Source: Pseudomonadota bacterium (lineage in GTDB: Bacteria > Desulfobacterota > Anaeroferrophillalia > Anaeroferrophillales > Tharpellaceae). Taken from it: 64,000 nucleotides of DNA. Positions within the stretch are counted from its first letter, which is position 1; each line of letters begins with the position of its first letter. This document shows positions 1 to 58,244 of the stretch, piece after piece. Made by a program: the position numbers and the translations under genes. The notes beneath the pieces are model-generated. The model did not search any database and had not been told where the DNA came from. It saw nothing but the letters and a program-made list of their open reading frames with translations. The stretch spans positions 12,659 through 76,658 of the forward strand of contig JAYEGS010000244.1 of the NCBI GenBank assembly GCA_034659215.1, written 5' to 3'.

Positions 1-92
1 GGAAAAGCACCTCTTCAACCAGCCTGCCGCTTTCACGATCGATGTAGTGGTGTCCCGGCCGCCCAGATGATGGGTTGCGTTTCTGCATCACT

Positions 93-2465: not shown

Positions 2466-2482
2466 TTAGAGCTAACCCATAC

Positions 2483-3562: not shown

Positions 3563-3585
3563 TCTATTTTTTCCTTATAAATTTA

Positions 3586-5466: not shown

Positions 5467-5626
5467 AATTTATCTGTCCAAAGTTAAATTAAGTTAAAGA
5501 AAATATTAATTATTTTTAAAGAAAAAATATTTAGCAAGACAAAAAATTTATCTTATCTTAACGATTTCAAGTTATGAACTAGCCTTGATGCAATCCAATC
5601 AGGCCTAAAAAAGGAGGAAAACAATA

Positions 5627-6169
5627 ATGGCTTTTGTTAACAAGCAGGAGTTTGGTCTGACTTTCGGGGAAACCGATAGCCTGGTCAGCGAAATTGTTGA
5701 GCTCCTCAAAAAACATCATGTTTTCGACGAGGGCTATCCTGGTCGAGATCTGGTCGAGGCGGAGAAGGTAAAACTCTCTTTTCGCAAGAAGGAAGATGTT
5801 TCCAAAGTAAAACTCCAACTTCAATTCCCGGAAAAGTTCGAGTATAATCCGAAAAGTGAAAGGGAATTACTTGAAAATCCCAAACTTAAATACAGTAAGT
5901 TAAAAAAAATGATGAAAAAATCCTATGCCGAACTCTGCCGGGCAGTTCAGGATGATATTTTGCCGCCGGCAGATCTGGTTGGAAACTTCATTAATCAATC
6001 GGCAAAAATGGTGACCTACGGCGGCCGTGGTGATGAGCACTACGACCGATATTCCGACGCCTGTTTCAATTTCAAGCAGGCCTATGATGATGGCGACCAG
6101 GAAAAAATGAAGGCAGCTCTGGCACGGGTGCAGAAGATAAAAAAAGAGTGCCATGAGCACTACAAATAG
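5627..6169 (+). CDS. GAK-cluster small protein, possible XXXCH-domain protein
   Basis: RBS AAGGAGG 7 nt upstream. The C-terminus ends ...KKECHEHYK. It is the first gene of a co-directional cluster with ATP-grasp, HprK-like kinase, amphi-Trp and CofD-like genes. The domain assignment comes from memory of the TIGRFAM description. Confidence 0.4.
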   Translation: MAFVNKQEFGLTFGETDSLVSEIVELLKKHHVFDEGYPGRDLVEAEKVKLSFRKKEDVSKVKLQLQFPEKFEYNPKSERELLENPKLKYSKLKKMMKKSYAELCRAVQDDILPPADLVGNFINQSAKMVTYGGRGDEHYDRYSDACFNFKQAYDDGDQEKMKAALARVQKIKKECHEHYK

Positions 6170-6184
6170 AGAAACGGAGTCAAT

Positions 6185-7345
6185 ATGGGCATAGCCGACA
6201 GCCTGAAAATCGTACCGGTTTCAGGCAACCTTCCGGAAGTAGATCAAGATATCTGCGAAGCGGACGAAAAAAGATTTTTCAAAGTTGTATCTACTAAATT
6301 GAATGATCTCGAAACTCAACGAATAACTACGCCCGAAGAGGTGTACAAAAGAGAGGAGGAGGTGCTGGCAGTTCATTGGCACCCTGAGTTTATTCCTCTT
6401 GATCTGATTACCGAAAGAATCGAAAAACTCTACCCCAATCGCCGCCGTGAGCTGATCATCCCCACCCAGCACAACGTCATGCTGGATTACAACGGCTACT
6501 CCGGGGTGGAGGTTGATTGTTATTCAAGCGGATTTAATCGCAAGGTCCAGCTGTTAATTCACTTCAACTCCAGCTTAGTGCGCGACAAGGAGTGCGGGGT
6601 TTTCGAAAACATTCTCGAGCATACTTTCAAGTACCGCTCATCCCAGCTCTTCAGCTTCATGGGAGCCCTGACCAAGCCCAAGCAAGAATGGCTGGAAAAA
6701 GCGGCCCGCGAAACCGGCGCCCGACCGGAGCTGATCGATTTCATCGCCTCTCATGTTAAAAAAATAGAGTCTTTAATTGAACTTCACTACGATCACATAC
6801 CCAGAGCCAGCATCAAAAACAAACTTTTACGAAACTATTTTTATGAGCTTGCCGACACTCTTGATGAAGCTGTAATCATACGGATTCAGGCTTTTCTAAA
6901 GAGCCTCAAAGAGATTGTTAAGAAAAATTTTTCCCTGAAATTCTTCTATCGAACTTCAGAAATAATCGAGGAAGCCCGATCTCTGGGGGCAGGTATTGTA
7001 ATTCCTCACCCGGAACAGTTCTGGCCCATTCTGATGGCTGATTATGATGTCGATGGCTACGAAATCTGGAACCCTCAATCCCGTGAATACACAGAGTTCC
7101 TAATTTCGGTCTTAAATCGACGCAACTCCAACCATAAGGGTCGCAGACTCCTGGCATTCATGGGTGACGACACTCATTTTGGTGAAAAAATCAAACACCC
7201 TGATGAAAGAAAAAAAGAGAAAGGCGACCGGGAGATCGGACTGCAACCGGCTTGGAATGATCTTGCTATCAGTAAAGAGTTGATTAAAGCCGGTCTCAGC
7301 AAAACTCAGGTCATGGCCGAATACAGAGCTCGCCTGGACGGCTGA
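6185..7345 (+). CDS. hypothetical protein (GAK cluster member)
   Basis: ORF 16 nt after the previous gene, on the same strand. No recognisable motif. Confidence 0.5.
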   Translation: MGIADSLKIVPVSGNLPEVDQDICEADEKRFFKVVSTKLNDLETQRITTPEEVYKREEEVLAVHWHPEFIPLDLITERIEKLYPNRRRELIIPTQHNVMLDYNGYSGVEVDCYSSGFNRKVQLLIHFNSSLVRDKECGVFENILEHTFKYRSSQLFSFMGALTKPKQEWLEKAARETGARPELIDFIASHVKKIESLIELHYDHIPRASIKNKLLRNYFYELADTLDEAVIIRIQAFLKSLKEIVKKNFSLKFFYRTSEIIEEARSLGAGIVIPHPEQFWPILMADYDVDGYEIWNPQSREYTEFLISVLNRRNSNHKGRRLLAFMGDDTHFGEKIKHPDERKKEKGDREIGLQPAWNDLAISKELIKAGLSKTQVMAEYRARLDG

Positions 7346-7361
7346 AACTGGAGAAAAATTT

Positions 7362-7628
7362 ATGGATTCCAAAAAGTTCTCGCACATCTCAATTCAGGAT
7401 ACTGAAGCTGTTAAACTTTATCTTAAATCTCTAATTGAGGCCCTTGAAAAGAAACAGATCACTTTATCCTCCGGTAAAGAAAAAATGGAGATGACTGTAG
7501 GGGATTTATGCCGTGTCTCAATCCAGGCAAAGAAAAAAGGGCCTGAAAACAAACTCTCGATCAAGCTTAACTGGAAGGAAAACGGCAAACTGATGGAACT
7601 TTCGGAAGATGATGTCGAAATACTCTGA
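7362..7628 (+). CDS. amphi-Trp-like small protein, paralog 1
   Basis: 88 aa. It parallels the 85-aa ORF at 12653: acidic N-terminus, then K-rich, then a conserved Trp in KLNWKEN versus KLSWKQE. Confidence 0.5.
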   Translation: MDSKKFSHISIQDTEAVKLYLKSLIEALEKKQITLSSGKEKMEMTVGDLCRVSIQAKKKGPENKLSIKLNWKENGKLMELSEDDVEIL

Positions 7629-7646
7629 ACATCAAGGTATCGATAA

Positions 7647-9317
7647 TTGAGTAACGAATTTTACGAGATCCAGAATCTCGAAGATAATTTCAGCCTGCTC
7701 CTAACCGAAACTTCCAGTCAGGTGGAGCGCTCGTTCACGTTCATAGAGACTTTTTCGCAAGATCTTTACGAAAAGGTCGTCCAACGCGACGACTACATCG
7801 ACAACCTCAAGCTGACCATTGAAAATCAATGTTTTGACTCACTGCGTAAACTTACCAGTAAAAACAAAGAAGAGATGTCTCAGATTCGGGCGCGTCAGAT
7901 TATCTGCGTTAACCTGGAAAAGATCGCCGATTTCTGCGTCAATATCTGCAAGCAGGTTGAGTTTATCCACGATAAGGATTTCTGGCTACAATTCAGTTTT
8001 CAACCAATGTGCCGAATGATAGAGGAGAACCTCAAGCAAATCGAAGCTACCCTTAGCGAGAAAAGTGTGGCCAAAGCCATGATCATCTGCCGGTCGGAGT
8101 GTGAACTTGACGATCTCTTCAAGGAAAATTTTGACCAGATAATGCTTTTTCTCCGGACCGGAGAGCAGGTCGATACCTGCGTGACCACCCTCTTCATCTT
8201 CCGCTATCTCGAACGTATGGGGGACTCTCTGCTTAATATCGGAGAAGCAATACTGCTGGCAATACTGGGTGATAAAATAAAGATCCGTCAGTTTGAAGCG
8301 ATGCAGCAGAGCCTTGATCAATCAGGCATGGAGATTCCACCGGAAAAACTTGAAGTAAACTCATTTCTGGGAACCCGTTCCGGCTGCAATATAAGCCGAC
8401 TGGCAAACGAAGTTAACCAGGGTTTAAGCGATGAACGTCGGGAGGGTCTGTTTAAATCGGGAAACCCCGAGAAAATCGAGCGGGAAAAGGATAATATTGA
8501 AGAGTGGTCAAGGATAAAACCGGGCCTTGTGCCAAAGATATTCTCCTTCCAGAAAGAGCCGGACCGCAGTTCAATGCTGGTGGAATTTCTATCTGGCCAG
8601 ACACTTGAAGCTACGATAGTCTCCTGCAGCTGGCTGGAAATTGACCAGATTATGAATGAACTCAAGGCAAACATTGTTGAGATCTGGAAAAAAACCGCGA
8701 TCAGGAAACCGACTCCCACTAACTACATGGACCAGCTTTTAAAAAGAACTGAGGCGATCAGGACAATCCACCCTGATATCATGTCGGATGGTCAGATTAT
8801 TGGCGGAGTTGAAATCCCCTCGGCAGAAACTCTGGTAAAAAATTGCCGCCACTGGGAGAGCCGGACACCAGCCCCCTTTTCAGTCTTTGGTCACGGCGAT
8901 TTCAATGTTAACAATGTTCTCTATGATTTTGAGAAACAGGCCCTTCACTACATCGACCTCTACCGCTCACATCGGGCTGACTACCTGGAAGATGTTGCGG
9001 TTTTTCTGGTTTCCAACTTTCGCCTGCCGATTTTTGACCGGGAGACCCGTAAAAAAATCAACAAAACGATTATCAGCTTTTACGATTTTGCCCACGATTT
9101 TGCTCAAAAGAACAAGGATCAGACCTTTGCCCTGCGCCTGGCTCTGGCACTGGCAAGATCCTTCATGACTTCAACCAGATTTGAACAAAAACGAAAATTC
9201 TCCCGGGAGATGGGATTGCGCTCAACCTATCTTTTAGAAAGAATTGATCGACATTTGAGCAGCAATGGTTCACCGGTTGATTTTTCTTTCCCCAGGAGTA
9301 TACTTATCTTGCCCTAA
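7647..9317 (+). CDS. PhoU-like domain fused to a protein-kinase-like/APH-fold phosphotransferase
   Basis: N-terminus has PhoU signatures: DDYIDNLKLTIENQ and RYLERMGDSLLNIGE (compare ERIGDHATNIAE). C-terminus has HGDFNVNNVLYD, a kinase-like HGDxxxxN catalytic loop, and DLYRS (DxD-like). Confidence 0.55.
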   Translation: MSNEFYEIQNLEDNFSLLLTETSSQVERSFTFIETFSQDLYEKVVQRDDYIDNLKLTIENQCFDSLRKLTSKNKEEMSQIRARQIICVNLEKIADFCVNICKQVEFIHDKDFWLQFSFQPMCRMIEENLKQIEATLSEKSVAKAMIICRSECELDDLFKENFDQIMLFLRTGEQVDTCVTTLFIFRYLERMGDSLLNIGEAILLAILGDKIKIRQFEAMQQSLDQSGMEIPPEKLEVNSFLGTRSGCNISRLANEVNQGLSDERREGLFKSGNPEKIEREKDNIEEWSRIKPGLVPKIFSFQKEPDRSSMLVEFLSGQTLEATIVSCSWLEIDQIMNELKANIVEIWKKTAIRKPTPTNYMDQLLKRTEAIRTIHPDIMSDGQIIGGVEIPSAETLVKNCRHWESRTPAPFSVFGHGDFNVNNVLYDFEKQALHYIDLYRSHRADYLEDVAVFLVSNFRLPIFDRETRKKINKTIISFYDFAHDFAQKNKDQTFALRLALALARSFMTSTRFEQKRKFSREMGLRSTYLLERIDRHLSSNGSPVDFSFPRSILILP

Positions 9318-9320
9318 ACT

Positions 9321-9329
9321 AAATAACCT
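9321..9329. repeat. 9-bp target-site duplication AAATAACCT (left copy)
   Basis: Identical 9-mer at 10646..10654, immediately outside the IS inverted repeats. Confidence 0.7.
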
Positions 9330-10645
9330 CAGTGTTGTCCGGTTAGGAATTTGCATGTAAAAAATATAGAAGAAAATTGAAAATAATGTCATTTTTTACT
9401 TGACATTCGAGCAATAGTGCGCGCGCGATTTTACCTGTAATATCAACTACTTACAGGGGGAATTGTAAATGCCGCGCACTTTGTCACCAAAAAAATTTGG
9501 TCGATTACCATCGTTTAAATCAGTCCTCTTTCCGCTTACTGGAGCATCTTGTGGCGTTCCAGAATTAATATCTGGAAGTAATAGAGATTTGAAAATGACA
9601 TTTGAAGATCAACTTAAAGTTATGGTCTACTTCCATTTGAAAGATTTTAAGTCTGGTTGCCACCTGCTACAAGATCTACAGGAAGATGACTTTGCAAAAG
9701 AGTTTATAGCCCCCAATGGTGGAATCGGTAAAAGTACATTTTTTGATTCGCTAAACGAACGTGGCCTCGAACAATTCTTACACGTTTTTCAAAATCTGTT
9801 TAAACAAGCGAGTAATCAGATACCTAAAGAATTTTCTGAACTGGGAGATCTGGTTGCCATTGATGGTTCCCTGATCGATTCGGTTCTCTCCATGGTCTGG
9901 GCCGACTATCGCAAAGGGTCAAAAAAAGCAAAAGTCCATTTTGGGTTTAACGTTAATTGCTCTATTCCACAAAAGGTTTTTTTAACCGATGGCAATGGAG
10001 CCGAACGGCCTTTCGTTCAAAAAATTGTGGAACCAGGTCAAACAGGCATAATGGATAGGGGTTATCAAAGTCACGACCTGTTTGATCAATGGCAAGAAAA
10101 TGACGTCCATTTTGTCTGCAGAATCAAAGGCAATACTCAAAAAACTTGTATTAAAGAGCTTCCTTTTGAAACCGGGGGCGACATCTTCTATGATGCAGTG
10201 GTTCGCCTGGGTCAACCTGGCGTAAATGAGACTAAAAAGGATCTACGCCTGGTTGGTTATAAAATTGGCGACAAAAAATATTGGGTTGCGACCGACAGGT
10301 TTGATCTAACGGCTGAGCAGGTCGCCTTAATCTACAAACTGCGTTGGAACGTGGAATCTTTTTTTGCCTGGTGGAAACGCCATATGCGAGTATATCATTT
10401 AATTTCAAGAAGTAAGCATGGGTTAATGGTTCAAATATTATCAGGTCTTATCACATACCTGTTGCTCGCCATTTATTGTAACAATGAATTTGGCGAAAAA
10501 GTTAACATTAAGAGAGTGCGTGAATTACAAATAAAAATAGCCAATGAGATTCGCCAGCTGGATCAGGAACCTCCAGATTTTGATCCGGTGGAAGAAAACT
10601 GGACAGAACCATTATTGCAAGCAAATCTCTAACCGGACACCACTG
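9330..10645 (+). mobile_element. IS4-family insertion sequence (1316 bp), intact
   Basis: Left inverted repeat CAGTGTTGTCCGGTTA at 9330..9345. The right one at 10630..10645 reads CAGTGGTGTCCGGTTA as reverse complement, a 15/16 match. It is flanked by the 9-bp direct repeat and holds a single DDE transposase ORF. Confidence 0.8.
9469..10632 (+). CDS. IS4-family DDE transposase
   Basis: DDE residues lie in VAIDGSLID, IMDRGYQS and YKLRWNVESFFAWWKRH (the Y-x2-R-x3-E-x6-K IS4 signature). The stop codon overlaps the right inverted repeat. Confidence 0.85.
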   Translation: MPRTLSPKKFGRLPSFKSVLFPLTGASCGVPELISGSNRDLKMTFEDQLKVMVYFHLKDFKSGCHLLQDLQEDDFAKEFIAPNGGIGKSTFFDSLNERGLEQFLHVFQNLFKQASNQIPKEFSELGDLVAIDGSLIDSVLSMVWADYRKGSKKAKVHFGFNVNCSIPQKVFLTDGNGAERPFVQKIVEPGQTGIMDRGYQSHDLFDQWQENDVHFVCRIKGNTQKTCIKELPFETGGDIFYDAVVRLGQPGVNETKKDLRLVGYKIGDKKYWVATDRFDLTAEQVALIYKLRWNVESFFAWWKRHMRVYHLISRSKHGLMVQILSGLITYLLLAIYCNNEFGEKVNIKRVRELQIKIANEIRQLDQEPPDFDPVEENWTEPLLQANL

Positions 10646-10654
10646 AAATAACCT
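10646..10654. repeat. 9-bp target-site duplication AAATAACCT (right copy)
   Basis: Matches 9321..9329. Confidence 0.7.
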
Positions 10655-10682
10655 CTTACTCAACCTATTGAGGAATCAATAT

Positions 10683-11576
10683 ATGAAAATTGGAGTAGTA
10701 GGAACTGCCGGCGGCTGGTCATCTGAACTTCTCGCCGATAGAGTCGCTGAAAAGACCGGCTCCCGTCTCCTGATCGAGATGGACAGAACCCGGCTCGATC
10801 TGCCGGCCGGAAAACTCTGGTTCAACGATGTTGACCTGACAACTCTCGATGCCCTGCTGATAAAAAAAATCGGGCAGCGTTACTCGCCTGATCTCCTGGA
10901 TCGCCTCGAAATGCTGCGGATCTTGTCTAAAAAAGATGTTTTAATCTGTTCCGACCCGCTTAAAATCCTGCGCGTTCTGGATCGTTTAAGCTGCACTGTA
11001 ACCCTGCAGGAGAACGAAATACCGATGCCGGAAACTTCGATCACGGAAAATGTTGAACTTGCCGCCGCCATAATCCGGGATTATGGCGAAGCCGTACTGA
11101 AACCCCTCTACTCAACCAAGGCAAGAGGCATGACGATAGTAAGCGACGGCCCAGACCTTATTAAAGTGCTGGAAAATTACAAAAAAGAGAATACGATTAT
11201 CTATATTCAGAAAAAGATCGACCTGGGCGAGTTTGACCTGGGGCTGGTTTTTCTGGGCGGCAAATATCTGACCACCTATGCCCGCTGCCGCCAGGATAAA
11301 ACGGCATGGAACACAACCACAGCGGCCGGCGGTAAATACGCCGCCATTGATCCCGAACCGGAAGTTATTGAGCTTGCCCGCCAGGCTCAGGCACCCTTCG
11401 GACTCGATTTCACCTGTGTCGATGTTGCTCTGACAGATGCGGGGCCGGTAGTTTTTGAAGTTTCTGCTTTTGGTGGTTTTCGCGGCATCCTTGAAGCTCG
11501 AGGTCTGGATGCTGCTGCTCTTTTAACTGACTATGTAATTGAAAAAGTGGACAACCATAATGACACAAACAGCTAA
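10683..11576 (+). CDS. ATP-grasp enzyme (RimK/GshB-like), GAK-system type
   Basis: ATP-grasp fold motifs (LKPLYSTKARGM, IYIQKKIDLGEFDLGLVFLGGKY, ...FEVSAFGGF). Preferred start is the ATG at 10683 with GAGGA 8 nt upstream. The ORF-track TTG is at 10668. Confidence 0.7.
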   Translation: MKIGVVGTAGGWSSELLADRVAEKTGSRLLIEMDRTRLDLPAGKLWFNDVDLTTLDALLIKKIGQRYSPDLLDRLEMLRILSKKDVLICSDPLKILRVLDRLSCTVTLQENEIPMPETSITENVELAAAIIRDYGEAVLKPLYSTKARGMTIVSDGPDLIKVLENYKKENTIIYIQKKIDLGEFDLGLVFLGGKYLTTYARCRQDKTAWNTTTAAGGKYAAIDPEPEVIELARQAQAPFGLDFTCVDVALTDAGPVVFEVSAFGGFRGILEARGLDAAALLTDYVIEKVDNHNDTNS

Positions 11577-12651
11577 AAGTCTGAATCAACTGGCAGAAGA
11601 GTTTTTAAGTGGCGTTAGTCTTACGCAAACGCTATCTTTAAAATTTGAAGATTATCTCATCGGCATCCAGAGCAACTCTCACTCTTTGATTGAAAATTTG
11701 CGGCACTATTTCGCAGACTTTGTGGTTGAGGGTAGTGCGCCTGCACTTCTGGTGACAGCTATCGAGATGGAGCAACCTAAGTTTGACCTCCACTTTGAGA
11801 TCAAGGTTCCGGACCCCGGAAAAACTAAAATCAAGGAAGAATTTGTTAATATCGAAGGCGGCAGGATAGTCAGGAAACGCTTGACCGGCATGAGCTTTCT
11901 CTTCGGTGGCTCTATAAACCTGGCGCTTGGTCCATGCCGGGCAAACTCAAACCAGGTAATAAACTTTATCAACAACCGGTTTATCTCCTACAAACTTAAT
12001 CAGGGCTGCCTCCTCGGTCATGCTGCCGCTGTAACTGCAAACGGCAGAGGTCTGGCGCTGGCAGGATTTTCCGGGATGGGAAAATCAACCCTGGCCCTGC
12101 ACCTGATGAGTCGCGGCGTGAAATTTGTCAGTAACGACCGGCTCCTGGTTGACGCTGAGAGAAAAGATGAATTGAAAATGTACGGGGTTGCCAAGCTGCC
12201 GCGGATTAATCCGGGAACCGCTCTCAACAACCCCGACCTCGTCAAAGTTCTACCGGTCGATGACTACAAACGTTTCTCTCTGATTGAACAGGATGAGCTC
12301 TGGCAGGTCGAGCATAAATACGATGTTTTCATCGACGACTGCTTCGGCCCCGATCGTTTTCAGATTAAAGCTCAAATGAGCGCTCTGGTAATCCTTAACT
12401 GGCAACATAACGCTCCTGAAACCTTAATCAAACAAGCTGATCTCTCCCGACGACTGCAGATCCTGCCGGCTTTCATGAAGACCGCCGGCCTCTTTTATCT
12501 CGATGAGAGCAACCGAAACGAAGAGATGGAGAGGGTTGATTTTTACCAGGAACAACTCTCCTTATGCCCGATATATGAATTGAGTGGTAAAATTGATTTC
12601 AGCAAGGCGGCTGATTTGTGCATCTCATTATTAGAAGAGACGGAGCTATAG
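11539..12651 (+). CDS. HprK-related P-loop kinase
   Basis: LAGFSGMGKSTLALHLMSRGVKFVSNDRLLVD matches the HPr kinase/phosphorylase C-terminal P-loop pattern G-x-SG-x-GKS...DD. It overlaps the ATP-grasp gene end, consistent with translational coupling. Confidence 0.65.
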   Translation: MKKWTTIMTQTAKSLNQLAEEFLSGVSLTQTLSLKFEDYLIGIQSNSHSLIENLRHYFADFVVEGSAPALLVTAIEMEQPKFDLHFEIKVPDPGKTKIKEEFVNIEGGRIVRKRLTGMSFLFGGSINLALGPCRANSNQVINFINNRFISYKLNQGCLLGHAAAVTANGRGLALAGFSGMGKSTLALHLMSRGVKFVSNDRLLVDAERKDELKMYGVAKLPRINPGTALNNPDLVKVLPVDDYKRFSLIEQDELWQVEHKYDVFIDDCFGPDRFQIKAQMSALVILNWQHNAPETLIKQADLSRRLQILPAFMKTAGLFYLDESNRNEEMERVDFYQEQLSLCPIYELSGKIDFSKAADLCISLLEETEL

Positions 12652-12652
12652 T

Positions 12653-12910
12653 ATGTCTGAAAAAAAAGTGGACTTTACAACAAAGGGTGAAAACCAGGAG
12701 GTGGTTAACTATCTCTCCTCTCTGATTCAGGGTTTTGAAAAAAAGCGTCTTATCCTGACTCATGCCGATGATGAAGTTGTCCTCTACCCCGATGACGAAA
12801 TCACTTTCAAAGTCAAAGCCCGTCTCAAAAAAGGTGAAGCCCGGGTGGAACTGAAACTCTCCTGGAAACAGGAGGCAGAATCTGGTAAAGAGATCTTAAT
12901 CAGCAATTGA
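12653..12910 (+). CDS. amphi-Trp-like small protein, paralog 2
   Basis: 85 aa, paralogous to 7362..7628. Starts 2 nt after the kinase stop. Confidence 0.5.
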   Translation: MSEKKVDFTTKGENQEVVNYLSSLIQGFEKKRLILTHADDEVVLYPDDEITFKVKARLKKGEARVELKLSWKQEAESGKEILISN

Positions 12911-12981
12911 GATCACAGTTATTAACTGGATGGATATTCTCCGACGCAACTACTACTGTCTGAAAGCTTAAAAATGTTCAA

Positions 12982-14208
12982 TTGAGAATGAAACACAAAC
13001 AGTCCGAACCTAACACAAAGATTCTTATCAACCGGGAATTTTCGATTCCCGACCCGGAAAAACTGGAACTCTACCGCTCCAACCCTTCTCTTGGCCCGCG
13101 AATTCTTTTTTTCAGCGGGGGCTCGGCAATCCGCCAGCTCAGCACCAGGCTTATCAACTACACCTGGAACTCAATCCATTTAATAACCCCTTTTGACTCA
13201 GGAGGCAGTTCTGCCGTTTTAAGAGAGGCTTTTCGCATGCCGGCAATCGGCGACATTCGCAATCGTCTTATGGCCCTGGCGGACCAGTCAGTACTCGGCA
13301 ACCCTGAAATTTTCCGGCTCTTTGCCTACCGTTTACCAACTGCCGCTTTAGAAGATGATCTTCTAAATGAGTTTACCAGCATTCTCGAAGGCCGGCATGA
13401 GTTGGTTGCTGCCGTCTCATCACCGATGCGTAAGATCATCAGGCATCATCTTAAACTTTTCTCTGAACTAAAGCCGGAAAAGTTCAATCTCGCCGGTGCC
13501 AACATCGGCAACCTGGTCCTGACAGCCGGCTACCTTGAGAACCGCCGTCATCTTGACCCAACCATTTATATTTATTCGAAATTAGCCGAAGTGCGGGGAG
13601 TTGTCAGACCGGTTGTCAGCGTAGACTGTCACCTCGGCGCTGAACTTAACAATGGAGCAAGGATTATCGGTCAGCACCTTATCACCCGACAGAACAGAGC
13701 TAAAGCAAAGCAGCGAATAGAGAAAATATTTTTACTTGAGGCTGGAAATCCGGTTTCAGACATCAGTGATGAAATCTCTATACGTCCCAAAGTTGCTGAA
13801 CTGATCAATAAAGCGTCCATTATCTGCTACCCGATGGGAAGCTTTTTCACCAGTCTGATTGCCAGCCTGCTGCCTTCGGGGATTGGTTCGGCGCTAGCGC
13901 GAAGCCGAGCGCCGAAAATATACATTCCCAATACGGGAGATGATCCGGAAAGCTTTGGTTTAGACTTGATGGATCAGATCGATACCCTTTTAAACTATCT
14001 GAAGAGAAACAATTCCACCCTAGATGATAAACAACTGCTTAATTTCGTTTTACTTGACAGCAACGAAAAAAATTATACCGGCAAGCTCAATCCGGCAGAT
14101 CTTGAAGAGCGCGGCATCAGAATCATCCGCCGCAATTTAATCTCTGCCGCAAGCAAGCCATTGATCGATGCCGACCTTCTAACTGAAACCCTCCTCTCCC
14201 TCAACTGA
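12982..14208 (+). CDS. CofD-like / UPF0052 (YvcK-like) family protein
   Basis: ILFFSGGSAIRQL...ITPFDSGGSSAVLRE...IGDIRNRL matches the CofD/YvcK N-terminal signature. Confidence 0.7.
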   Translation: MRMKHKQSEPNTKILINREFSIPDPEKLELYRSNPSLGPRILFFSGGSAIRQLSTRLINYTWNSIHLITPFDSGGSSAVLREAFRMPAIGDIRNRLMALADQSVLGNPEIFRLFAYRLPTAALEDDLLNEFTSILEGRHELVAAVSSPMRKIIRHHLKLFSELKPEKFNLAGANIGNLVLTAGYLENRRHLDPTIYIYSKLAEVRGVVRPVVSVDCHLGAELNNGARIIGQHLITRQNRAKAKQRIEKIFLLEAGNPVSDISDEISIRPKVAELINKASIICYPMGSFFTSLIASLLPSGIGSALARSRAPKIYIPNTGDDPESFGLDLMDQIDTLLNYLKRNNSTLDDKQLLNFVLLDSNEKNYTGKLNPADLEERGIRIIRRNLISAASKPLIDADLLTETLLSLN

Positions 14209-14372
14209 CAATGGCCGGACAAAAGTTAACTAAATTCTTCTGCTACCATCTTGAAGATAATTTGATCGGCATTTTTCATCAAGCTCTCCCTCTCACCGAA
14301 TCAACCGAATCCGCTTTTTCTAAAGCAAACAGAGCCTGTTTGGGGCCAGCAACCCCTTTCTGTGCAGCCTCA

Positions 14373-14750
14373 TTAACGCTCTTGGTCCGTATGGTGCGCT
14401 GCATAACTGATTGCGCAATTTCCCCCGCACCACAGAACGTGCCATCTCCAGGGTAAAGAGCTCATCTTTAACCGATTTGAACTGTTTTTGCCGTAAAAAA
14501 CATTTTTCCCGGAGGCAAAGGCAAATTTACCGTTAAACTTTCCGTTTCGATGGAGAAAAACCGTATCGATCTGGTGCCGCATCAAAAGGTTAATCGCGGC
14601 ACTGGTAATCTCGATACGACCGACAATCACCAACTGCTCGGTCTTAAAGGGAAAGATCGACTTTAAAAGATCATCCCCTTTGCGCAGTTGCAGAACATCG
14701 CCCCTTTTTACCAGGCGCCCGTAATCAGAAACCACATAAATGATCGACAC
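14373..14750 (-). pseudogene. cas1: cas1 N-terminal remnant (truncated, ~90 aa Cas1-like then out of frame)
   Basis: MSIIYVVSDYGRLVKRGDVLQL...TEQLVIVGRIEITSAAINLLMRHQIDTVFLHRNGKFNGKFAF matches the Cas1 N-terminal beta-sandwich pattern (v-x-i-x-G-x-v-x-iT-x2-A-x2-L-x4-IP-v-x-Fl-x3-G-x-y-x-G). The ORF stops after 125 aa, whereas Cas1 is about 300 aa. No CRISPR array nearby. Confidence 0.5.
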
Positions 14751-15083
14751 ATTTTCACCTCAGCCAAAAAGGACAATACCAATACCTGCAAAAAAGTTAT
14801 CATGTCCAACCGATAGTGAAGCTTCATCATCAAGCAACAAGAGAATAGAGACTATCAGTTCATCCCGACTTTGGTCATCAACAATGAAAACCCCAAGAAC
14901 ACTGCATAGCTCTCTGAGTTCACCGTTTGACATCACTTCAAGCTGCTGCCGCCAATTCATGATTTCCATCTCCTCCTTCGCATCTACAACCAACCATTTT
15001 CTTCAGAAGGCTTTTTCCATCACAAGGGGAAAGAAGCAACGATTATTGAAGCCAGAAGGTCTCAATCCTTTTTTTCAGGTAAC

Positions 15084-15653
15084 TTGCTTGAACTCAAGGC
15101 ACAAATAGAAGCTGGGAGGAGCGAACTCACAAAATCGGCGCAAAGAAAAATTGAGAAGTACTTGGTTTGCTCGAAAAAAGGACGGGGCGGGCAGTTGAAA
15201 ATAGGCTTTGATGACAAGGCTATAGCCAAAGCAAAGAAGTACTTCGGCTATTTTGTGCTCGTCAGTAACCAGACCATGGACACGTTTGTCGCGCTAGAAA
15301 ACTATCGATTGCGAGAAAAAATAGAAGAACTGTTTGCTGTACAAAAGGGAGGGCTTGACGGTGCACGGCCACGCACATGGTATCCCGACAACCTGCGAGG
15401 AAGACAATTTGTGCAGTTTGTATCACTGGGCTACCATTGTTTCCTGACGAAGAAAATAAAAGAAGTACGGGCTAGACTTGGAAGGAATGAAAACGGAAAG
15501 ACTAAGGCTCTCATCAAACTCGAAAAGAAACTGGATCAATGGATTGAGCAACGCTCTCTTGCCCAAATTCTAGACTGGTTCGACTGTATTGAAACAACCA
15601 CCGTGCAGACTGCTATGGGCAACTATCGAATCGATGGTCTACCGAATCAGTAG
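15084..15653 (+). pseudogene. IS4/IS1634-superfamily transposase C-terminal fragment
   Basis: KKYFGYFVLVSNQTMD...YRLREKIEELFAVQK....ARPRTWY is the C-terminal E-containing block (Y-x2-R-x2-IE-x2-F) of IS1634-like transposases. The N-terminal DD region is absent. Confidence 0.5.
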
Positions 15654-15719
15654 CCAGAGATCGGTTGTTTTTAGAATATTTGGGGATGACAAATAAATAG
15701 TGTACGCTTTATCCGACTT

Positions 15720-16322
15720 TCAGGGGAGTCTCGACTTAAAAAGCTTTTCGGCCTTGTCACGGTCCTGAAAGAGGGGCCGTTTTTTGATCTTTTTCTTGGC
15801 TCGTGGAGAGCCCATTATTTTTTCGGAAATTGTATTAAAGTCGGATTGCAGATAGATGACGCGTCCGATGTCGTTTAAATTATCTACTCCAATAAAACCA
15901 CCACCCGTGGAAATGACTGTATTTTTTACGGAATGTGCCAGCCAGTCAGCAACTTTTTGTTCAAGGTTGCGGAAATAAGCTTCCCCTTTCTCTTTGAATA
16001 TATTTCTAATTGTTCTGTTTTCCAAGCTTTCAATCAGATCATCTGTGTCAATGGCAAAGTAATCTGTTTGTCTAGCCAATTCTCTGGCCAATTTGCCCTT
16101 GCCGACACCCATAAAGCCGATTAGGAGAATATTGTTCGATTTAATCTGGACAGAATCTTTTTTTCGGTCTATGCTGGTGGTACCGGGAACAATCTTTTGG
16201 GTTTGATCCCGGCTGGCTGCTACCGGGCATTTGCGACAAAATTTTCCCTTTTTTTTAAATTTACGGCAACATTTTTTCTTTATTTTTTTCTTTTCCATGC
16301 GACGATTTCCTTTGGGAAGCAA
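15720..16322 (-). CDS. aroK: shikimate kinase with Lys/Cys-rich N-terminal extension
   Basis: ILLIGFMGVGKGKLARELA...FAIDTD...ISTGGG are shikimate kinase Walker A and LID motifs. The N-terminal 40 aa (KKKIKKKCCRKFKKKGKFCRKCP) are unusual. Confidence 0.7.
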   Translation of the reverse strand: MLPKGNRRMEKKKIKKKCCRKFKKKGKFCRKCPVAASRDQTQKIVPGTTSIDRKKDSVQIKSNNILLIGFMGVGKGKLARELARQTDYFAIDTDDLIESLENRTIRNIFKEKGEAYFRNLEQKVADWLAHSVKNTVISTGGGFIGVDNLNDIGRVIYLQSDFNTISEKIMGSPRAKKKIKKRPLFQDRDKAEKLFKSRLP

Positions 16323-26779: not shown

Positions 26780-27427
26780 CTATCTGGAACTGGGGAAGGC
26801 GGGCATATTTCCGCCTTCCGACATCCCCTGCATATTGCCCATTCCCTCCATGCCGGGAATTTGGGGCATAGCAAATTTCCGGTAGCCGGATGGGATTTGA
26901 AAGAGATGATCCGGCTGTTTACCGGTGTTGATGTTGCGGTAGTTGACTTCGGTTTCAGGGGTAAGGATACGAATGGCCATTCCCTCTTTTACCGCAATCC
27001 AGTAGGTTATTGTTTCACCTTCATCAGTGATCTCATATTTATCACATTTAATCCCGTTTACGGTTTCACGGCCCAGCTTTTTCCCCTCTTTTTCCAGTAG
27101 CGGTTTCCAGTTGTCGGGCATGATTTCATCATCATCATCATCCAAATCAATAGCCATCTCAAGATAACTTTTCCCTTGCGGCATCAAAGTCCAGACGACG
27201 CCTTTGTCGGGGCGGCTGATCAAAATTATCTCGCGGCCCCCTTGATTCATCTCATTGCGGCTCTGATTACCCTTTATAAAAAACTTGCCTTTGGCAACGA
27301 CATGTCCTTGTGAACGGGTCTCCATCTCCGCACTGTACTCCGCCGCCTGCAGAGAGGACAGAAAGCCGAGGCTGATAATGAAAACGATGGTTAGCGCAAT
27401 GCTTAAGCCTGTTTTTTTCAAGTTCAT
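26780..27427 (-). CDS. periplasmic/secreted hypothetical protein
   Basis: Signal peptide MNLKKTGLSIALTIVFIISLGFLSSLQAAEY. There is an acidic DDDDDE stretch and a Met/Gly-rich C-terminus. Confidence 0.45.
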   Translation of the reverse strand: MNLKKTGLSIALTIVFIISLGFLSSLQAAEYSAEMETRSQGHVVAKGKFFIKGNQSRNEMNQGGREIILISRPDKGVVWTLMPQGKSYLEMAIDLDDDDDEIMPDNWKPLLEKEGKKLGRETVNGIKCDKYEITDEGETITYWIAVKEGMAIRILTPETEVNYRNINTGKQPDHLFQIPSGYRKFAMPQIPGMEGMGNMQGMSEGGNMPAFPSSR

Positions 27428-27454
27428 GATAGTTCCTCCATTTGATGTTGAATA

Positions 27455-27730
27455 ATTATAATGTCACTTTGTAACTATTCTGCTAACCCGAAAATTCAGG
27501 GGACATATATCAATATATGTTACATCGTAACTATTCAGCGTAATGTACTCTTCAAACTATCTCGATACGGGGACATTGCTCCAGGCGGCGGCTGCTAAGC
27601 CTTTATGCCGGTCTGAGCTGCGCTGTGAGCGAAGCGAGGAAGTACTCTTGGGGTGTGTCCCCCTCGAAGCCGGGCGAAGCCAATGTTCGCACCATTTGCA
27701 GTGGCTTTAAGGTAATCACGCTGAATAGTT
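27455..27730. repeat. MITE-like element, family A core flanked by 15-nt TIRs GTAACTATTCAGCGT / ACGCTGAATAGTTAC
   Basis: Left TIR at 27527..27541 and right TIR, its exact reverse complement, at 27711..27725. An extra partial left end is at 27463..27480. The core is shared with 41021.., 46036.. and 57985... Confidence 0.65.
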
Positions 27731-28766
27731 ACGTCACTTTTTCTAGCAACTTTTCCAATTCCTTTACCCGTTTTTCGAGATTTGCCAGACGTCCGCGATC
27801 TTTGGGCAGGTGGGTGGCGGCCATCATCTGGCGCAGGGCTTGTTTGACCGGAATTGCCGGAATGCCGCCGTAATCTTGATCTCCGGGAAGAGATTTGGCC
27901 GCTGAGGTGCCGCCCATCAGGCGGGCCCGGTCGCCGATTGTTATATGGTCGACCATGCCGACCCTGGGGCCCAGCATCACCTGATTGCCGATCCGGACAC
28001 TGCCGGAGATGCCGACCTGGGCGCACATGATTCCTTCATGACCAACTTTAACCCCGTGGCCTAAGTGGACGTGGTCGTCGATTTTGGTGCCGCGGCCGAC
28101 GACGGTTTCATCCATCGCTGCCCGATTGACGGTCGAGAGAGCGCCAATTTCGACATCATCTTCAATAATGACCCGGCCGATCTGGGGGATTTTAACATTG
28201 CAGCCGCCAACCTGAAAAAAACCGAAACCATCCGAGCCGATGACCGAATTTGGATGAATCATGACCCGGTCGCCAAGACAACAATTTTCGCGAATCACGA
28301 CTCCGGGATAGAGGTGGCAATCGGAACCGATTTTTACCCTTCTGCCGATGTAGGTGTTGGCATAGATACGACAGTTATCACCGATAACCGCATCATCGCA
28401 GATAACCGCTCCGGGTCCGATATGCAGGTTATCACCCAAGGAGACATTCTCACCGATAGCTGCCGTTTGATCAATTCGGTAATCGACCATCTGGGCGGCT
28501 TTGTCGATCTCCATCATTATAAGACCCGCGGCCCGGAAGGGCTGGTCACAGATAATCAGGGCTTGTGGTAGATTCTCTACTTTTCTGGGAACGAGCAAAG
28601 CTCCGGCTTTTGAGGCGGCAGCTTTTTCGAGAAATTTCTCTTCGGCAAAGGAGAGTTCATCAACTGAAGCCGCCTCCAGACTGTTGATACCGGTCACCAC
28701 CAGATTTTCATCCCCGACAACCTCACCACCAACCTTGTCGGCAATTTGAGCAAGAGTGTAACGCAT
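27729..28766 (-). CDS. lpxD: UDP-3-O-acylglucosamine N-acyltransferase
   Basis: Typical LpxD N-terminus (MRYTLAQIADKVGGEVVGDENLVVTGI), hexapeptide repeats throughout, and a coiled-coil C-terminus. Confidence 0.8.
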   Translation of the reverse strand: MRYTLAQIADKVGGEVVGDENLVVTGINSLEAASVDELSFAEEKFLEKAAASKAGALLVPRKVENLPQALIICDQPFRAAGLIMMEIDKAAQMVDYRIDQTAAIGENVSLGDNLHIGPGAVICDDAVIGDNCRIYANTYIGRRVKIGSDCHLYPGVVIRENCCLGDRVMIHPNSVIGSDGFGFFQVGGCNVKIPQIGRVIIEDDVEIGALSTVNRAAMDETVVGRGTKIDDHVHLGHGVKVGHEGIMCAQVGISGSVRIGNQVMLGPRVGMVDHITIGDRARLMGGTSAAKSLPGDQDYGGIPAIPVKQALRQMMAATHLPKDRGRLANLEKRVKELEKLLEKVT

Positions 28767-37254: not shown

Positions 37255-37400
37255 CGTTTTAAATGCGTATTCGGGCGTATTCCGCGTGGTATTCGAGGTA
37301 TTCCGGGGACACCATACTTAACTATTATTAAATATGGAACAATTATTGTAACTTTTTATCTAACCCGCAAACTCAGGCTACACAATCTCGATTTTCTTCG
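37255..37400. repeat. intergenic repeat modules (D: GTATTC tandem + ATTCCGGGGACACC; B-like TTGTAACT..TAACCCG..TCAGG)
   Basis: D matches 55040..55095 and the reverse complement of 57925..57975. The B-like part matches 27463..27495. Confidence 0.6.
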
Positions 37401-37429
37401 GAGAATCTGTCATAGTGTTGAGTTTTGCT

Positions 37430-37798: not shown

Positions 37799-37804
37799 AT
37801 TGTT

Positions 37805-37935
37805 TACCTGTCTCGGCTGGGGTCATTTCTTGACACTTGGCGGCCGTAAGGTTCGCGTTAAACCAAAATTTTAATCCGCCATTTGTCAAGATGTGACCCC
37901 GTTAATGGGGGCGAAGCAAATTTCACTCTAACTTC
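37805..37935. repeat. intergenic repeat module E (hairpin-forming)
   Basis: ~75% identical to 57782..57905 (GGCGG.TGTAAGGTTCGCGT...CCGCCATTTGTCAAGATGTGACC). Confidence 0.6.
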
Positions 37936-39076: not shown

Positions 39077-39087
39077 GTTAAAATTCC

Positions 39088-40632
39088 TTAGAACGTTATG
39101 CGGCGATCGAGTGAGCGAAACTGGATCGCTTCGGCGATGTCGGCGCTGTTGATTTCGGGTCTTGTTTGCAGATCTGCGATAGTGCGGGCCACCTTTAAGA
39201 TCCGGCTGTAGGCTCGCGCACTTAAACCGAGTCGATCCATAGCCGTTTGCAAGAGGTTACGGCACTCTTGATCAAGATGGCAGAATTTTTTTAGATCACG
39301 GTCACTTAAGGCGGCGTTATTGCGGCGTGAGTGGTTTTTCAGGCGTTGCCGTTGGATTTTTTGCGCTTTTATAACCCGATTACGGATCTTTTTTGAACTG
39401 TCTCCGGTTTGGGCTTGGTTCGGGTTGATAAGTTCGGTGGTCGGCACTGCCGGAACTTCGATATGGAGGTCGATGCGGTCGAGCAATGGGCCTGAGATTT
39501 TATGGCGATAGCGTTGGATTTGCGAGGCGCTGCAAGTACATTCATGAAAAGGGTCGCCATAGTGGCCGCAAGGGCAGGGGTTCATGGCGGTGATGAGAAT
39601 GAAATCGGCCGGGAAAACGGCCTGAGCCTGAGCCCGGGCGATGGTGATTTGGCGGCTTTCTAAGGGTTGGCGCAAAACTTCGAGAGCGGAACGGCGAAAC
39701 TCGGGGAATTCATCGAGAAACAGGACGCCGTTATGGGCCATCGTGACTTCGCCGGGTCGGGGCTGGGAGCCGCCGCCGATCAGGGCAACATCGGAGATCG
39801 TGTGGTGGGGTTGGCGAAAGGGACGATTTTTGATCAGGCCTTGACCTGAGCCAATGAGACCGGCGACGCTGTGAATGATCGTGGTTTCCAACGCCTCTTC
39901 AAATGTCAGCGTCGGCAAGATTGAGGGCAGACGCCGGGCGAGCATGGTTTTCCCGCTGCCGGGCGGGCCGACAAAAAGGAGGTTATGGTTTCCGGCCGCG
40001 GCGATCTCTAAGGCTCTTTTGGCTTGGCTTTGCCCTCGGACATCGGCAAAATCAAGTTGATCATCGGTCTTTTTTTTACTTTGTGAAAAAGTTTCGGGAC
40101 GGCTTGGCCGGGGACATTTTTCAAGGATGATATCCAGGGTTTCGAGCAGGTTCTCGACCGCTATAATCTCGATTTCAGTAATTGCTGCGGCTTCGGCGGC
40201 ATTGGCGCGGGGTAAGAAAATGCCTTTACAGCCGCTTTCACGGGCGGCCAGAGCGATCGGTAAGGCGCCGCGAATCTCTTTGACCCGGCCATTCAATGAA
40301 AGCTCACCGCAGAAAAGATAGTCATTAAAAATTGAAGTTTTTTGCAGCTCTTTATGGTCGCCAGTGATAATACCTAAGGCGGCCGGCAGATCGAGGGCGG
40401 TGCCCTCTTTGCGGAGGTCGGCCGGAGCCAGGTTAACGGTGATCCGGCGGGCGGGAAATTTGAAACCGCAATTTTTAATCGCCGAGCGGATCCGTTCCTT
40501 GCTCTCCTTAATGGCGTTGTCAGCCAGGCCGACGACGACAAAGTTGGGCAGGCCGCGCGAAACATCGACCTCAACCTCAACCGGAAGGGCTTTAATGCCT
40601 GCCAGAGAAGCACTTTTAATGGTTGTAAACAT
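39088..40632 (-). CDS. comM: Mg-chelatase-like AAA ATPase YifB/ComM
   Basis: MFTTIKSASLAGIKALPVEVEVDVSRGLPNFVVVGLADNAIKESKERIRSAIKN plus Walker A GPPGSGKT. Confidence 0.8.
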   Translation of the reverse strand: MFTTIKSASLAGIKALPVEVEVDVSRGLPNFVVVGLADNAIKESKERIRSAIKNCGFKFPARRITVNLAPADLRKEGTALDLPAALGIITGDHKELQKTSIFNDYLFCGELSLNGRVKEIRGALPIALAARESGCKGIFLPRANAAEAAAITEIEIIAVENLLETLDIILEKCPRPSRPETFSQSKKKTDDQLDFADVRGQSQAKRALEIAAAGNHNLLFVGPPGSGKTMLARRLPSILPTLTFEEALETTIIHSVAGLIGSGQGLIKNRPFRQPHHTISDVALIGGGSQPRPGEVTMAHNGVLFLDEFPEFRRSALEVLRQPLESRQITIARAQAQAVFPADFILITAMNPCPCGHYGDPFHECTCSASQIQRYRHKISGPLLDRIDLHIEVPAVPTTELINPNQAQTGDSSKKIRNRVIKAQKIQRQRLKNHSRRNNAALSDRDLKKFCHLDQECRNLLQTAMDRLGLSARAYSRILKVARTIADLQTRPEINSADIAEAIQFRSLDRRITF

Positions 40633-40935: not shown

Positions 40936-41020
40936 GCCCTCTGGGCTGAGTAGTTACAAAAAAAGTTTGTTGACTTGTTACTGGAAACTTATTAAGGCTG
41001 ACGGCTTCGTGAAAACTCCA

Positions 41021-41235
41021 CACTATCTCGGTGTGGGGTCAGACCTCCAGGCGCCGGCTGTAAGCCGGTTGCCGATCTGAGTTTGCGCCCTGAGCGATAG
41101 CGAGGAAGTGCCCTTGGGGTAACCGTCCTCGAAGCCGGGCGAAGCCAAAATAACAACTTTGCCGCTTTTAACTTAATGCGGTTGGCGCGAACATCACTTT
41201 GCCCTCTTCTAAGGGGTCTGACCTCCAGGCCGAAG
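41021..41235. repeat. repeat family A copy 2 (with internal duplication of the GGGGTCxGACCTCCAGGC head)
   Basis: It shares CTATCTCGGTG.GGGG.CA.ACCTCCAGGC...CTGAGC...TCCTCGAAGCCGGGCGAAGCC with the other A copies. Confidence 0.65.
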
Positions 41236-46038: not shown

Positions 46039-46175
46039 AAATTCGTAACTATTCAGCGTAGTATCGTCTTCAAGCTATCTCGGTGCGGGGACATACCTCC
46101 AGGCCGGGCTTTAGCCCGTGACGAGCTGAGCTGTGTCCCCCTCGAAGTGGGCGAAGCGATGTTCGCATCATTTGT
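46036..46175. repeat. repeat family A copy 3 with left TIR only
   Basis: CGTAACTATTCAGCGTAGTATCGTCTTCAAGCTATCTCGGTGCGGGGACATACCTCCAGGCC... Confidence 0.6.
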
Positions 46176-46217
46176 TGCTTCTTGATGGTGGTGGGTGCGC
46201 TAGCAGGAGAAAAATTG

Positions 46218-48751: not shown

Positions 48752-49114
48752 TTATTTGACGGATTGGTTGACAATGCGGTTGTCGGCGTCAACCAGAATG
48801 GCTTTGGGGGTAAAGTTTTTTGCCTCATCTTCACTCATCGTGGCGTAGGCCGCAATAATTACCATATCACCTTTACGGGCCATCCTCGCCGCCGCCCCAT
48901 TGATACAAATTTCACCATTATTACTTTCGCCTTCAATAGTGTAGGTGGTGAAACGGGCACCGTTGGTCAGGTTGTAGACCTGAACCTGTTCGAAGGGCAG
49001 AATACCGGAGGCCTCAAGCAGGGTTTTGTCAATCGTGATACTGCCTTCGTAGGAGAGATTGGCGTCGGTAACCGTCGCCCGATGGAGTTTCCCTTTAAAC
49101 ATATTTAGTAGCAT
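48752..49114 (-). CDS. panD: aspartate 1-decarboxylase
   Basis: [29 protein letters not shown] includes the GS processing site. Confidence 0.85.
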
Positions 49115-49144
49115 AGTTGTAATCCTTTAATATTTATACCAATT

Positions 49145-49993
49145 TTAAAGTTGCAAGTTGTCAATTAAACGGGTTCCGCTCAGGTGAACTGCGATCAGCA
49201 TTACCGCCGGTGTCGTGATCGGCCCGTTGATTTCGGTCAGGTTGAAGGCGTCGTAGACTTTGATATATTCAACTTGATAGGGACTTTCAAATTTTTCTTC
49301 AAGTTGGTTGAGAACAGCCCGGCAGAGTTGATCGCTCTCCCTGTTGCCTTGTTCATACAAGGATTTGGCCTGAGAGAGAGCCTGATAGATGTTAGCTGCC
49401 TCTTTTCGTTCTCGGGTTGGCAGGTTGGTGTTTCGAGAGCTCATAGCCAAGCCATCACTCTCTCGAACAATCGGCACTCCGATAATTTCAATGGGGAAGT
49501 TTAAATCGATGACCATGCGACGAATAACGGCCAGTTGCTGAAAATCCTTTTCCCCGAAAAAGGCTACGTTCGGCAAGGTCAGGTTGAAAAGCTTACTGAC
49601 GACCGTGGTGACCCCCTGAAAGTGGCCCGGTCGGCCGGCCCCGCAAAGACCTTTGCTGATCTCTTTAACATCGACCGAGGTTTGAAAGAGGTCGGGATAG
49701 AGGTCTTCATTGGTCGGAGTGAAAACGACATCAACCCCGACTGCACGGCATTTGGCGAGATCCCCTTCAAGATCCTGCGGGTAACGATCAAGATCTTCGT
49801 TGGGGCCGAACTGAATTGGATTGACGAAGATTGAGACGATCACCAGGTCAGCTTTTTCCCGTGCCTTTTTCATCAGCATCAGGTGTCCGTCATGGAGGTA
49901 ACCCATGGTTGGAACCAGGGCTATAGTTTTGCCTGCACGACGACTCTCAAGGGCAAAATCCTGAATTTCTTTAATCTGTTTTATCTGTTGCAT
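49145..49993 (-). CDS. panC: pantoate--beta-alanine ligase
   Basis: VPTMGYLHDGH HIGH-like motif. The start is trimmed to MQQIKQIKEIQ. Confidence 0.85.
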   Translation of the reverse strand: MQQIKQIKEIQDFALESRRAGKTIALVPTMGYLHDGHLMLMKKAREKADLVIVSIFVNPIQFGPNEDLDRYPQDLEGDLAKCRAVGVDVVFTPTNEDLYPDLFQTSVDVKEISKGLCGAGRPGHFQGVTTVVSKLFNLTLPNVAFFGEKDFQQLAVIRRMVIDLNFPIEIIGVPIVRESDGLAMSSRNTNLPTRERKEAANIYQALSQAKSLYEQGNRESDQLCRAVLNQLEEKFESPYQVEYIKVYDAFNLTEINGPITTPAVMLIAVHLSGTRLIDNLQL

Positions 49994-50006
49994 AAAATTA
50001 TCCGAT

Positions 50007-55100: not shown

Positions 55101-55172
55101 TTGAAAACTGCCCCCCCCTCTCAAAAAAAAACGGCAAAAAGAAGGAATACAGGGGCAGCTGAATAGTTGCGT

Positions 55173-56628: not shown

Positions 56629-56859
56629 ATGAAAACTATCTCGTTGAAACTTGATGATTCTATCTTTGGTGAGACCGAAGATATTATTGGCCGGTTGAAA
56701 CAATCCCGCAACCGATATATCAATGAAGCGGTAGATTACTATAACAAAATTCAAAAACGCAAAAAACTGGAGCAGGCATTGCAAAAAGAGTCTTTGGTGG
56801 TTAAAGAAGATTCTATGTCAGTTCTAAAAGAGTTTGAGGTTTTTGAATATGAAAGTTAA
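56629..56859 (+). CDS. antitoxin (RHH/MazE-like) of the MazF-family toxin
   Basis: 76 aa, overlapping the downstream PemK/MazF gene by 26 nt. Confidence 0.5.
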   Translation: MKTISLKLDDSIFGETEDIIGRLKQSRNRYINEAVDYYNKIQKRKKLEQALQKESLVVKEDSMSVLKEFEVFEYES

Positions 56860-58075: not shown

Positions 58076-58244
58076 TCAAAACTAACCGGTTTTAACTTAA
58101 CAGTGAGACGTTAACCGGGAATTTTCGATTAATTGATGATCCCCATGAACCCCATTAATTTAAAAAATAAGTTGAAAAATGGTTGGATTATTCGATAAAG
58201 AGGATTATGGTGGAAGAAATGAAATTTCAGGGATTGGGGAAGTT

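Follow-up and report, generated by a model that had tools for sequence, protein, structure and literature searches.

A probable new family of MITEs with IS66-type ends in Tharpella-like Thermodesulfobacteriota

The intergenic repeats of the window (the whole 64,000-nucleotide stretch of DNA that was analysed) very probably belong to a new MITE family with IS66-type ends, which is of an otherwise ordinary kind. The elements are non-coding and 130-262 bp in size, and complete ones span GTAACTATTCAG... to ...CTGAATAGTTAC, with terminal inverted repeats (TIRs) of 15-20 bp that consist of GTAACTATTCAG and 3-8 further complementary nt at each end. A preliminary description of a MITE-like element with TIRs, present in several copies and solo ends that are all intergenic, was borne out, and the MITE reading was strengthened by 8-bp target-site duplications, by filled and empty orthologous sites and by dozens of copies in related genomes. 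The movement of the elements is inferred from the duplications and the empty sites.

The repeats in the window were confirmed as real and far above chance. A GC-rich core of roughly 90-135 nt, termed type 1, is present in four copies, all on the + strand. BLAST and a covariance model placed these at 27549-27681, 41015-41150, 46067-46158 and 57976-58071 (Table 1), and BLAST of 27440-27740 against the window gave matches at 41016-41148, 46043-46174 and 57977-58074, again all +. The exact 15-mer GTAACTATTCAGCGT occurs at 27527 (+), 27718-27732 (-) and 46045-46059 (+). When up to three mismatches were allowed, six sites were found in the window against 1.05 expected, and none of 100 shuffles reached six. 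The genes next to the copies are those guessed in the preliminary description (lpxD, comM, leuS and serC): lpxD (27729-28766, -), the gene of a YifB/ComM-type ATPase (39088-40632, -), leuS (to 46038, +) and serC (55173-56282, -).

Table 1. Elements, fragments, target duplications and empty sites of the MITE family in the window
Feature	Position	Strand	Remark
8-bp target-site duplication, left copy GTCACTTT	27463-27470	.	8/8 identical to 27733-27740
Outer left end, degenerate TIR GTAACTATTCTGCTA at 27471-27485	27471-27526	+	
Inner left TIR GTAACTATTCAGCGT, left end of type-1 element	27527-27541	+	exact match
Type-1 core, long form	27549-27681	+	BLAST, covariance-model match, fold
Right TIR, + strand reads ACGCTGAATAGTTAC	27718-27732	-	overlaps lpxD stop codon 27729-27731
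8-bp target-site duplication, right copy GTCACTTT	27733-27740	.	
Type-2 MITE remnant, 3' hairpin arm and decayed end	37348-37407	-	
Type-4 relative, CTCGGCTGGGGTCA ... TGACCCC ... GGGGCGAAGC, different apical insert	37800-37930	+	
Empty site, single TTCCTTA	39084-39090	.	L040:1947-2076 carries 130-bp type-2 MITE, duplication TTCCTTAA
Solo TIR-like end GTAACTACTCAGCCC, 3 mismatches	40943-40957	-	
Type-1 core, long form, without intact TIRs	41015-41150	+	upstream of SAM decarboxylase gene
Type-1 short form, between leuS and lptE	46045-46191	+	
Empty site	50001-50005	.	L006:1189-1399 carries type-1 insertion of about 210 bp
Solo TIR-like end GCAACTATTCAGCTG, 3 mismatches	55156-55170	-	2 nt past serC stop codon
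Type-4 copy no. 2, partial	57802-57889	+	84% identical to 37837-37924
Two tandem fragments GGTGTCCCCGGAATTCGG of type-2 hairpin 3' arm	57937-57972	+	just upstream of 58-kb core
Type-1 short form, type-B 3' tail, without TIRs	57976-58100	+	

The ends first assigned to the copies needed some revision. At 27.5 kb, the TIRs do form an exact inverted pair, but the right one starts at 27718 and not at 27711, and 27527 is not the left boundary of the inserted unit. The perfect duplication GTCACTTT fits the outer pair 27471-27732 and not 27527-27732, so that the true left end is the degenerate TIR. The segment 27471-27526, which begins with GTAACTATTCTGCTA and continues with the 5' part of a type-2 MITE that has lost its hairpin, is 94% identical to the ends of type-2 elements (L031 and L040) and is joined to a complete type-1 element. 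In the core of the latter, stem P1 is formed by GGGGACA (27569-75) and TGTGTCCCC (27654-62), the apical hairpin lies at 27586-27611, and an optional 35-nt module occupies 27619-27653. The pairing of GGGGACA with TGTCCCC described earlier thus holds at 27.5 kb, but the 41-kb copy has GGGGTCA with a degraded 3' partner. The left TIR at 46 kb is present as well, although it starts at 46045 and not at 46036, which is the leuS stop codon; this copy comprises the exact left TIR (46045-59), the core, a 3' tail and a decayed right TIR. As for the solo ends, those at 40943-57 and 55156-70 were retained, and a third one proposed at 40668 bears a weak resemblance only.

The 27.5-kb MITE sits within the final few codons of lpxD. 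In its present form, the gene finishes with ...LEKVT*, the last codon lying across the junction and the stop codon TAA coming from the TIR (G-TAA-C). In the other copy, the duplicated target is AAAGTGAC-ATTATAA, which suggests that the original lpxD ended ...KVTL*. The MITE also parts lpxD from the next minus-strand gene (26780-27427), the GGAGG ribosome-binding site of which is kept. Elsewhere in the window, a 120-amino-acid open reading frame (56834-57196, +), which adjoins the clustered MITE fragments of 57.8-58.1 kb, shows a weak match to MazF/ChpB-type toxins (E about 3e-5, under the curated cut-offs). The GC content changes from about 0.45 (1-16000) to about 0.50 (16000-64000); near 16 kb the GC skew shifts from about 0 to values of +0.05 to +0.18, and the sign of the AT skew flips there too. 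This change of composition may be a boundary between regions that differ in history or strand usage.

Target-site duplication is common in the family. Among the TIR pairs 60-330 bp apart in the window and related loci, 13 of 24 had flanks identical at seven or more of eight positions, eight of these perfectly, compared with 0.6% in a control in which flanks of different elements were paired. The duplicated 8-bp targets are AT-rich and intergenic. A metagenome scan for a sister element yielded 30 more loci, many of them with perfect 8-bp duplications. Furthermore, two contigs of Candidatus Tharpella aukensis that are syntenic with the window (L040 and L006) carry an element at sites where the window is empty (Table 1). 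A minimal 32-bp 'element' consisting of two ends back to back, GTAACTATTCAGCTAACCCGCTGAACAGTTAC, was seen at one further locus (L174, minus strand, from 123).

A scan of a genome collection with a 19-base core pattern found at least 53 loci, at least 50 of which are in Candidatus Tharpella (AUK131 and AUK234) and allied Thermodesulfobacteriota/'Deltaproteobacteria' bins; the three further ones, in unrelated phyla, were chance matches. The covariance model recognised 48 strong copies. The two syntenic contigs, L006 (window 48.8-54.8 kb) and L040 (window 34.7-41.3 kb), are 85-93% identical to the window in nucleotide sequence, and the organism behind the window is thus closely related to Ca. Tharpella aukensis, which was described from Auka vent sediments (PMC9213671). 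The element had no match in a DNA search of E. coli genomes, plasmids and phages, and a search of the literature for the TIR string matched only unrelated primer sequences.

The ends of IS66 elements start with GTAAGCG, and their direct repeats are 8 bp long (PMC11946415). The MITE ends start with GTAA and accompany an 8-bp duplication, in agreement with the IS66 signature, but after GTAA they depart from the textbook GTAAGCG. Scans of viral contigs for the TIR found GTAACTATTCAGCGATA at many contig ends; such a position of a terminus is typical of multi-copy ISs. In one of these contigs (L136), a distance of 75 nt separates GTAACTATTCAGCGATA from the C-terminus of a protein with the PF03050 domain, DDE_Tnp_IS66 (E 2e-7, above the curated cut-off). 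At other loci (L098 and L211-213, L211 being from Hoylesella buccalis), GTAACTATTCAGCGATA is followed 129 nt downstream by an N-terminal coiled coil, and the coiled-coil protein is named 'IS66 family transposase, partial [Prevotella]' in its source. A complete relative was found by tblastn of plasmids in Segatella copri DSM 18205 (plasmid NZ_CP085934.1, about 48777-50601). This 1825-bp IS is bounded on either side by the TIR GTAACTACTCAGCACCCC and flanked by a perfect duplication of 8 bp, GAAGCGTT, and it has one open reading frame of 491 amino acids with PF03050 (E 1e-34). The MITE end GTAACTATTCAG agrees with GTAACTACTCAG of the Segatella copri IS at 11 of 12 bases and with the Prevotella-type end at 14 of 14 nt, and the solo end at 40943 in the window is identical to the Segatella copri terminus over the first 12 nt and at 13 of 15 overall. 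The other tblastn matches were IS66 transposases of Bacillus, Geobacillus and Anoxybacillus, which we take to be of the single-ORF ISBst12 group. In another genome (L097), an unrelated 164-bp MITE shares the ends described here and is likewise flanked by an 8-bp duplication.

A tblastn search of the window and of about 550 kb of Tharpella-like loci gave no IS66 transposase, nor did an autonomous partner appear among the open reading frames beside solo ends, the multi-copy proteins of the loci or TIR pairs at kilobase spacing. Four candidates for a partner (L138, L160, L172 and L176) proved to be intragenic chance matches. A fifth locus, L200 (contig Ga0307990_1000285; 5939-6571, about 6940, 8697-9860), has a solo MITE end amid other mobile-element debris, namely a truncated ISL3-like transposase, an end-like sequence AGCTCTTTGAAA and an IS4-like transposase, both transposases being presumably of these kinds from the motifs that we recognised. 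These fragments are unrelated, and the locus was rejected as a source of the partner. With no transposase in the sampled Tharpella-like DNA, we infer the partner from ends in another phylum, the Bacteroidota. As judged from those ends, an IS66-family DDE transposase (TnpC) would move the elements in trans; it would bind both ends, excise or copy the element, and insert it at a staggered 8-bp cut.

The preliminary description had instead proposed REP/BIME-like sequences with an IS200/IS605-type or RAYT tyrosine transposase, that is, palindromes forming single-stranded DNA hairpins that are moved by a Y1 (RAYT/TnpA) enzyme. The REPs of Enterobacteriaceae and Pseudomonas are likewise GC-rich extragenic hairpin mosaics, often just past gene ends, and the present hairpins are GC-rich, intergenic and in mosaic clusters. 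One strand pairs better than the other, all four window copies are on the G-rich strand, and a mild lean to the G-rich strand (31:17) is seen across the loci. However, this strand bias is weak and not significant, unlike the strong, replication-related bias of single-strand transposons such as IS200/IS605. Furthermore, the elements have TIRs of 15-20 bp and 8-bp target duplications, neither of which Y1 elements possess, and their terminus is that of IS66 DDE elements. REPs lack TIRs and target duplications, have a GTAG or CGTC head and depend on the RAYT Y1 enzyme (PMC3733652), whereas no such head was seen here and the stems start with GGGG(A/T)CA. The link to REP/RAYT and IS200/IS605 was therefore rejected, and an origin of this kind is highly improbable.

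The MITE family is modular, in that identical ends enclose differing interiors (types 1 to 3). Type 1 occurs in a short and a long form, the latter with an additional module of 35-40 nt, and its 3' tail is of two kinds. Type 2 is 130 bp long and forms a single long hairpin, and type 3 has its own apical hairpin and shares the 3' tail of type 1. Type 4 has the stem and the 3' motif in common with the family, and no TIRs were recognised around either of its window copies. A GGGG(A/T)CA...TG(T/A)CCCC stem closes most of the interiors. In the 3' hairpin of the 46-kb copy (46147-46175), GGGCGAAGC-GATG-TTCGC is followed by ATCATTTGTT, making a weak terminator-like site just past leuS; the same hairpin with ATTTG recurs in most type-1 and type-3 copies. 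Besides the joined type-2 and type-1 pieces at 27.5 kb, two type-2 fragments and one type-4 copy precede the 58-kb core. Nesting and recombination account for the composite copy at 27471-27732, for the absence of ends from the 41-kb and 58-kb cores and for the solo ends. At the site upstream of the SAM decarboxylase gene (speH), the orthologous copies are a long form in the window and a short form in Ca. Tharpella aukensis (L040:134-230), which suggests that the module was gained or lost in place, or that copies were converted from others.

That the copies might be decayed remnants of a duplicated protein-coding gene is hardly conceivable. A stop-free frame does exist in 42 of the 48 cores, as is expected for about 30 GC-rich codons. 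The core lengths, however, fall into all three classes modulo 3 (20, 14 and 14), indels of 1-40 nt occur inside the core, the variation tracks base pairing and not codons, and every copy is intergenic.

The covariance model was built from 19 copies with a hand-drawn structure, comprising a 4-bp outer helix, the 13-bp stem P1 and a 3+5-bp apical hairpin. Since MAFFT placed the hairpin subfamilies out of register, the structure predicted by RNAalifold from that alignment was poor, and the model-based alignment was used instead. In this alignment of 48 copies, 92% of the cells pair, and both partners have changed in 7 of the 25 pairs (47 cells). Covariation scored 0.138, compared with 0.050 for shuffles, none of 500 reaching the observed value, and slid controls gave 0.027 or less. 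Examples of compensation are ACAGA/TCTGT, ACATA/TGTGT and ACATG/CGTGT, and CGGGC/GCCCG and GCCGG/CCGGC. A hairpin change noticed in the preliminary description, GCCGGC..GCCGG versus CGGGC..GCCCG, is real and belongs to this wider compensatory pattern over the 48 copies, although the loop at 58 kb is GCAA and not GTAA. Since the model shaped the alignment and the copies share ancestry, these values support a maintained hairpin and do not in themselves prove a function; part of the apparent invariance is ascertainment, as some of the 48 copies differ at positions fixed in the scan pattern. At alignment columns 37/83 (window 46102/46122), G·A is replaced by A·G in three copies (CCAGGC..GAC versus CCAGAC..GGC) where 30 others have G-C, which may mean that the base of the apical hairpin tolerates a purine-purine pair.

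The pairing is also uneven between strands. The ratio of G·U to A·C on one strand is 64:6 in type 1, mostly from about three subfamily-level positions, and 79:8 in type 2, over 18 versus 7 positions. In seven of eight type-1 elements, the GGGGACA strand folds more stably than its complement. The G·U excess together with the better folding of one strand suggests that this strand matters in single-stranded form, as RNA or DNA.

One explanation of these features would be that the core is a structured RNA acting in the host, such as a cis-regulatory leader, an mRNA stabiliser, a small RNA or a ribozyme, and that the ends merely spread it. The compensatory changes, the G·U excess in types 1 and 2 and the greater stability of the given strand would all be expected of such an RNA. 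Most type-1 copies lack one or both TIRs and yet have a well-conserved core; this speaks against the MITE reading with IS66-type ends, and could also mean host selection on the core, which has outlasted the TIRs at 41 and 58 kb. A copy at the same site upstream of speH has also been kept in two species. An RNA function of this kind is compatible with the MITE reading and places the selection on the RNA. However, the orientation of the copies is random relative to the host genes (27 same and 22 opposite for downstream genes, 26 and 22 for upstream genes); about half of the copies would thus be read as the complement, and a host regulatory function is probably not involved. Neither the apical hairpin nor the 35-40-nt module is essential (L011, L049, and the 41-kb copy compared with that in L040), the type-1 G·U excess has the narrow origin given above, and template switching at quasi-palindromes can create and maintain pairing without selection (PMC8794818), thereby mimicking compensation.

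Searches for known RNAs and for expression signals also speak against a host RNA. The whole window had no match in Rfam at the gathering score, and two copies searched at E ≤10 gave chance-level matches only. Scans of the elements found no promoter-like site and no clear terminator-like site, the single weak terminator match being the 3' hairpin of the 46-kb copy. A suspected resemblance to HDV-like ribozymes was unsupported by the Rfam searches. A 5'-UTR or regulatory leader was considered because many copies seemed to lie just upstream of start codons, and was dropped when the count gave no orientation bias. Of the functional RNA hinted at in the preliminary description, the kept pairing stands, and the role in the host is doubtful, given the random orientation and the lack of an Rfam match. 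We consider a host RNA unlikely.

The stem-loops are most likely a requirement of the MITE itself or a product of mutational hairpin repair. A more specific form of the former, in which the stem-loop modules are selected on one strand as a single-stranded nucleic acid, either element RNA or a single-stranded DNA intermediate of transposition, is a doubtful possibility. If it were true, an IS66-type MITE family would possess a structured component specific to one strand, on which its spread depends or from which the host profits. To our knowledge, such a component has not been described for IS66 elements, the mechanism of which is poorly known.

Among known systems, the single-ORF IS66 ISs resemble the window elements in the terminus, in the TIR of 15-20 bp and in the 8-bp target duplication. 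In contrast to these ISs, the window elements are 130-260 bp long, lack a transposase and have unrelated GC-rich hairpins as interiors; moreover, their Tharpella-like Thermodesulfobacteriota host is far from the Bacteroidota, and no autonomous copy was seen in the sampled DNA. The Correia/NEMIS elements of Neisseria and the ERIC elements of enterobacteria are likewise short, non-coding, bounded by TIRs, intergenic and present in many copies, with length variants by internal insertion, strongly folded transcripts expected and insertions within operons (PMC10969869, where the known roles of MITEs are reviewed). They differ in parent family and target duplication, Correia elements duplicating TA, and each has one long palindrome in place of the asymmetric, modular interior seen here. 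A further difference lies in the promoter, IHF and RNase sites, which are known from these MITEs and not from the window elements.

With the present results, a MITE family is well documented from Tharpella and its relatives, an uncultured lineage of the deep sea which is known only from metagenome bins, and the shared ends tie this family to IS66-type transposases. The family explains together several odd intergenic repeats of the window. Such elements break assemblies and can supply stop codons, and they sit inside operons; in the window, one copy parts lpxD from the gene that follows and another parts leuS from lptE. The bias of the hairpins towards one strand offers a modest clue to the possible working of IS66-type elements.
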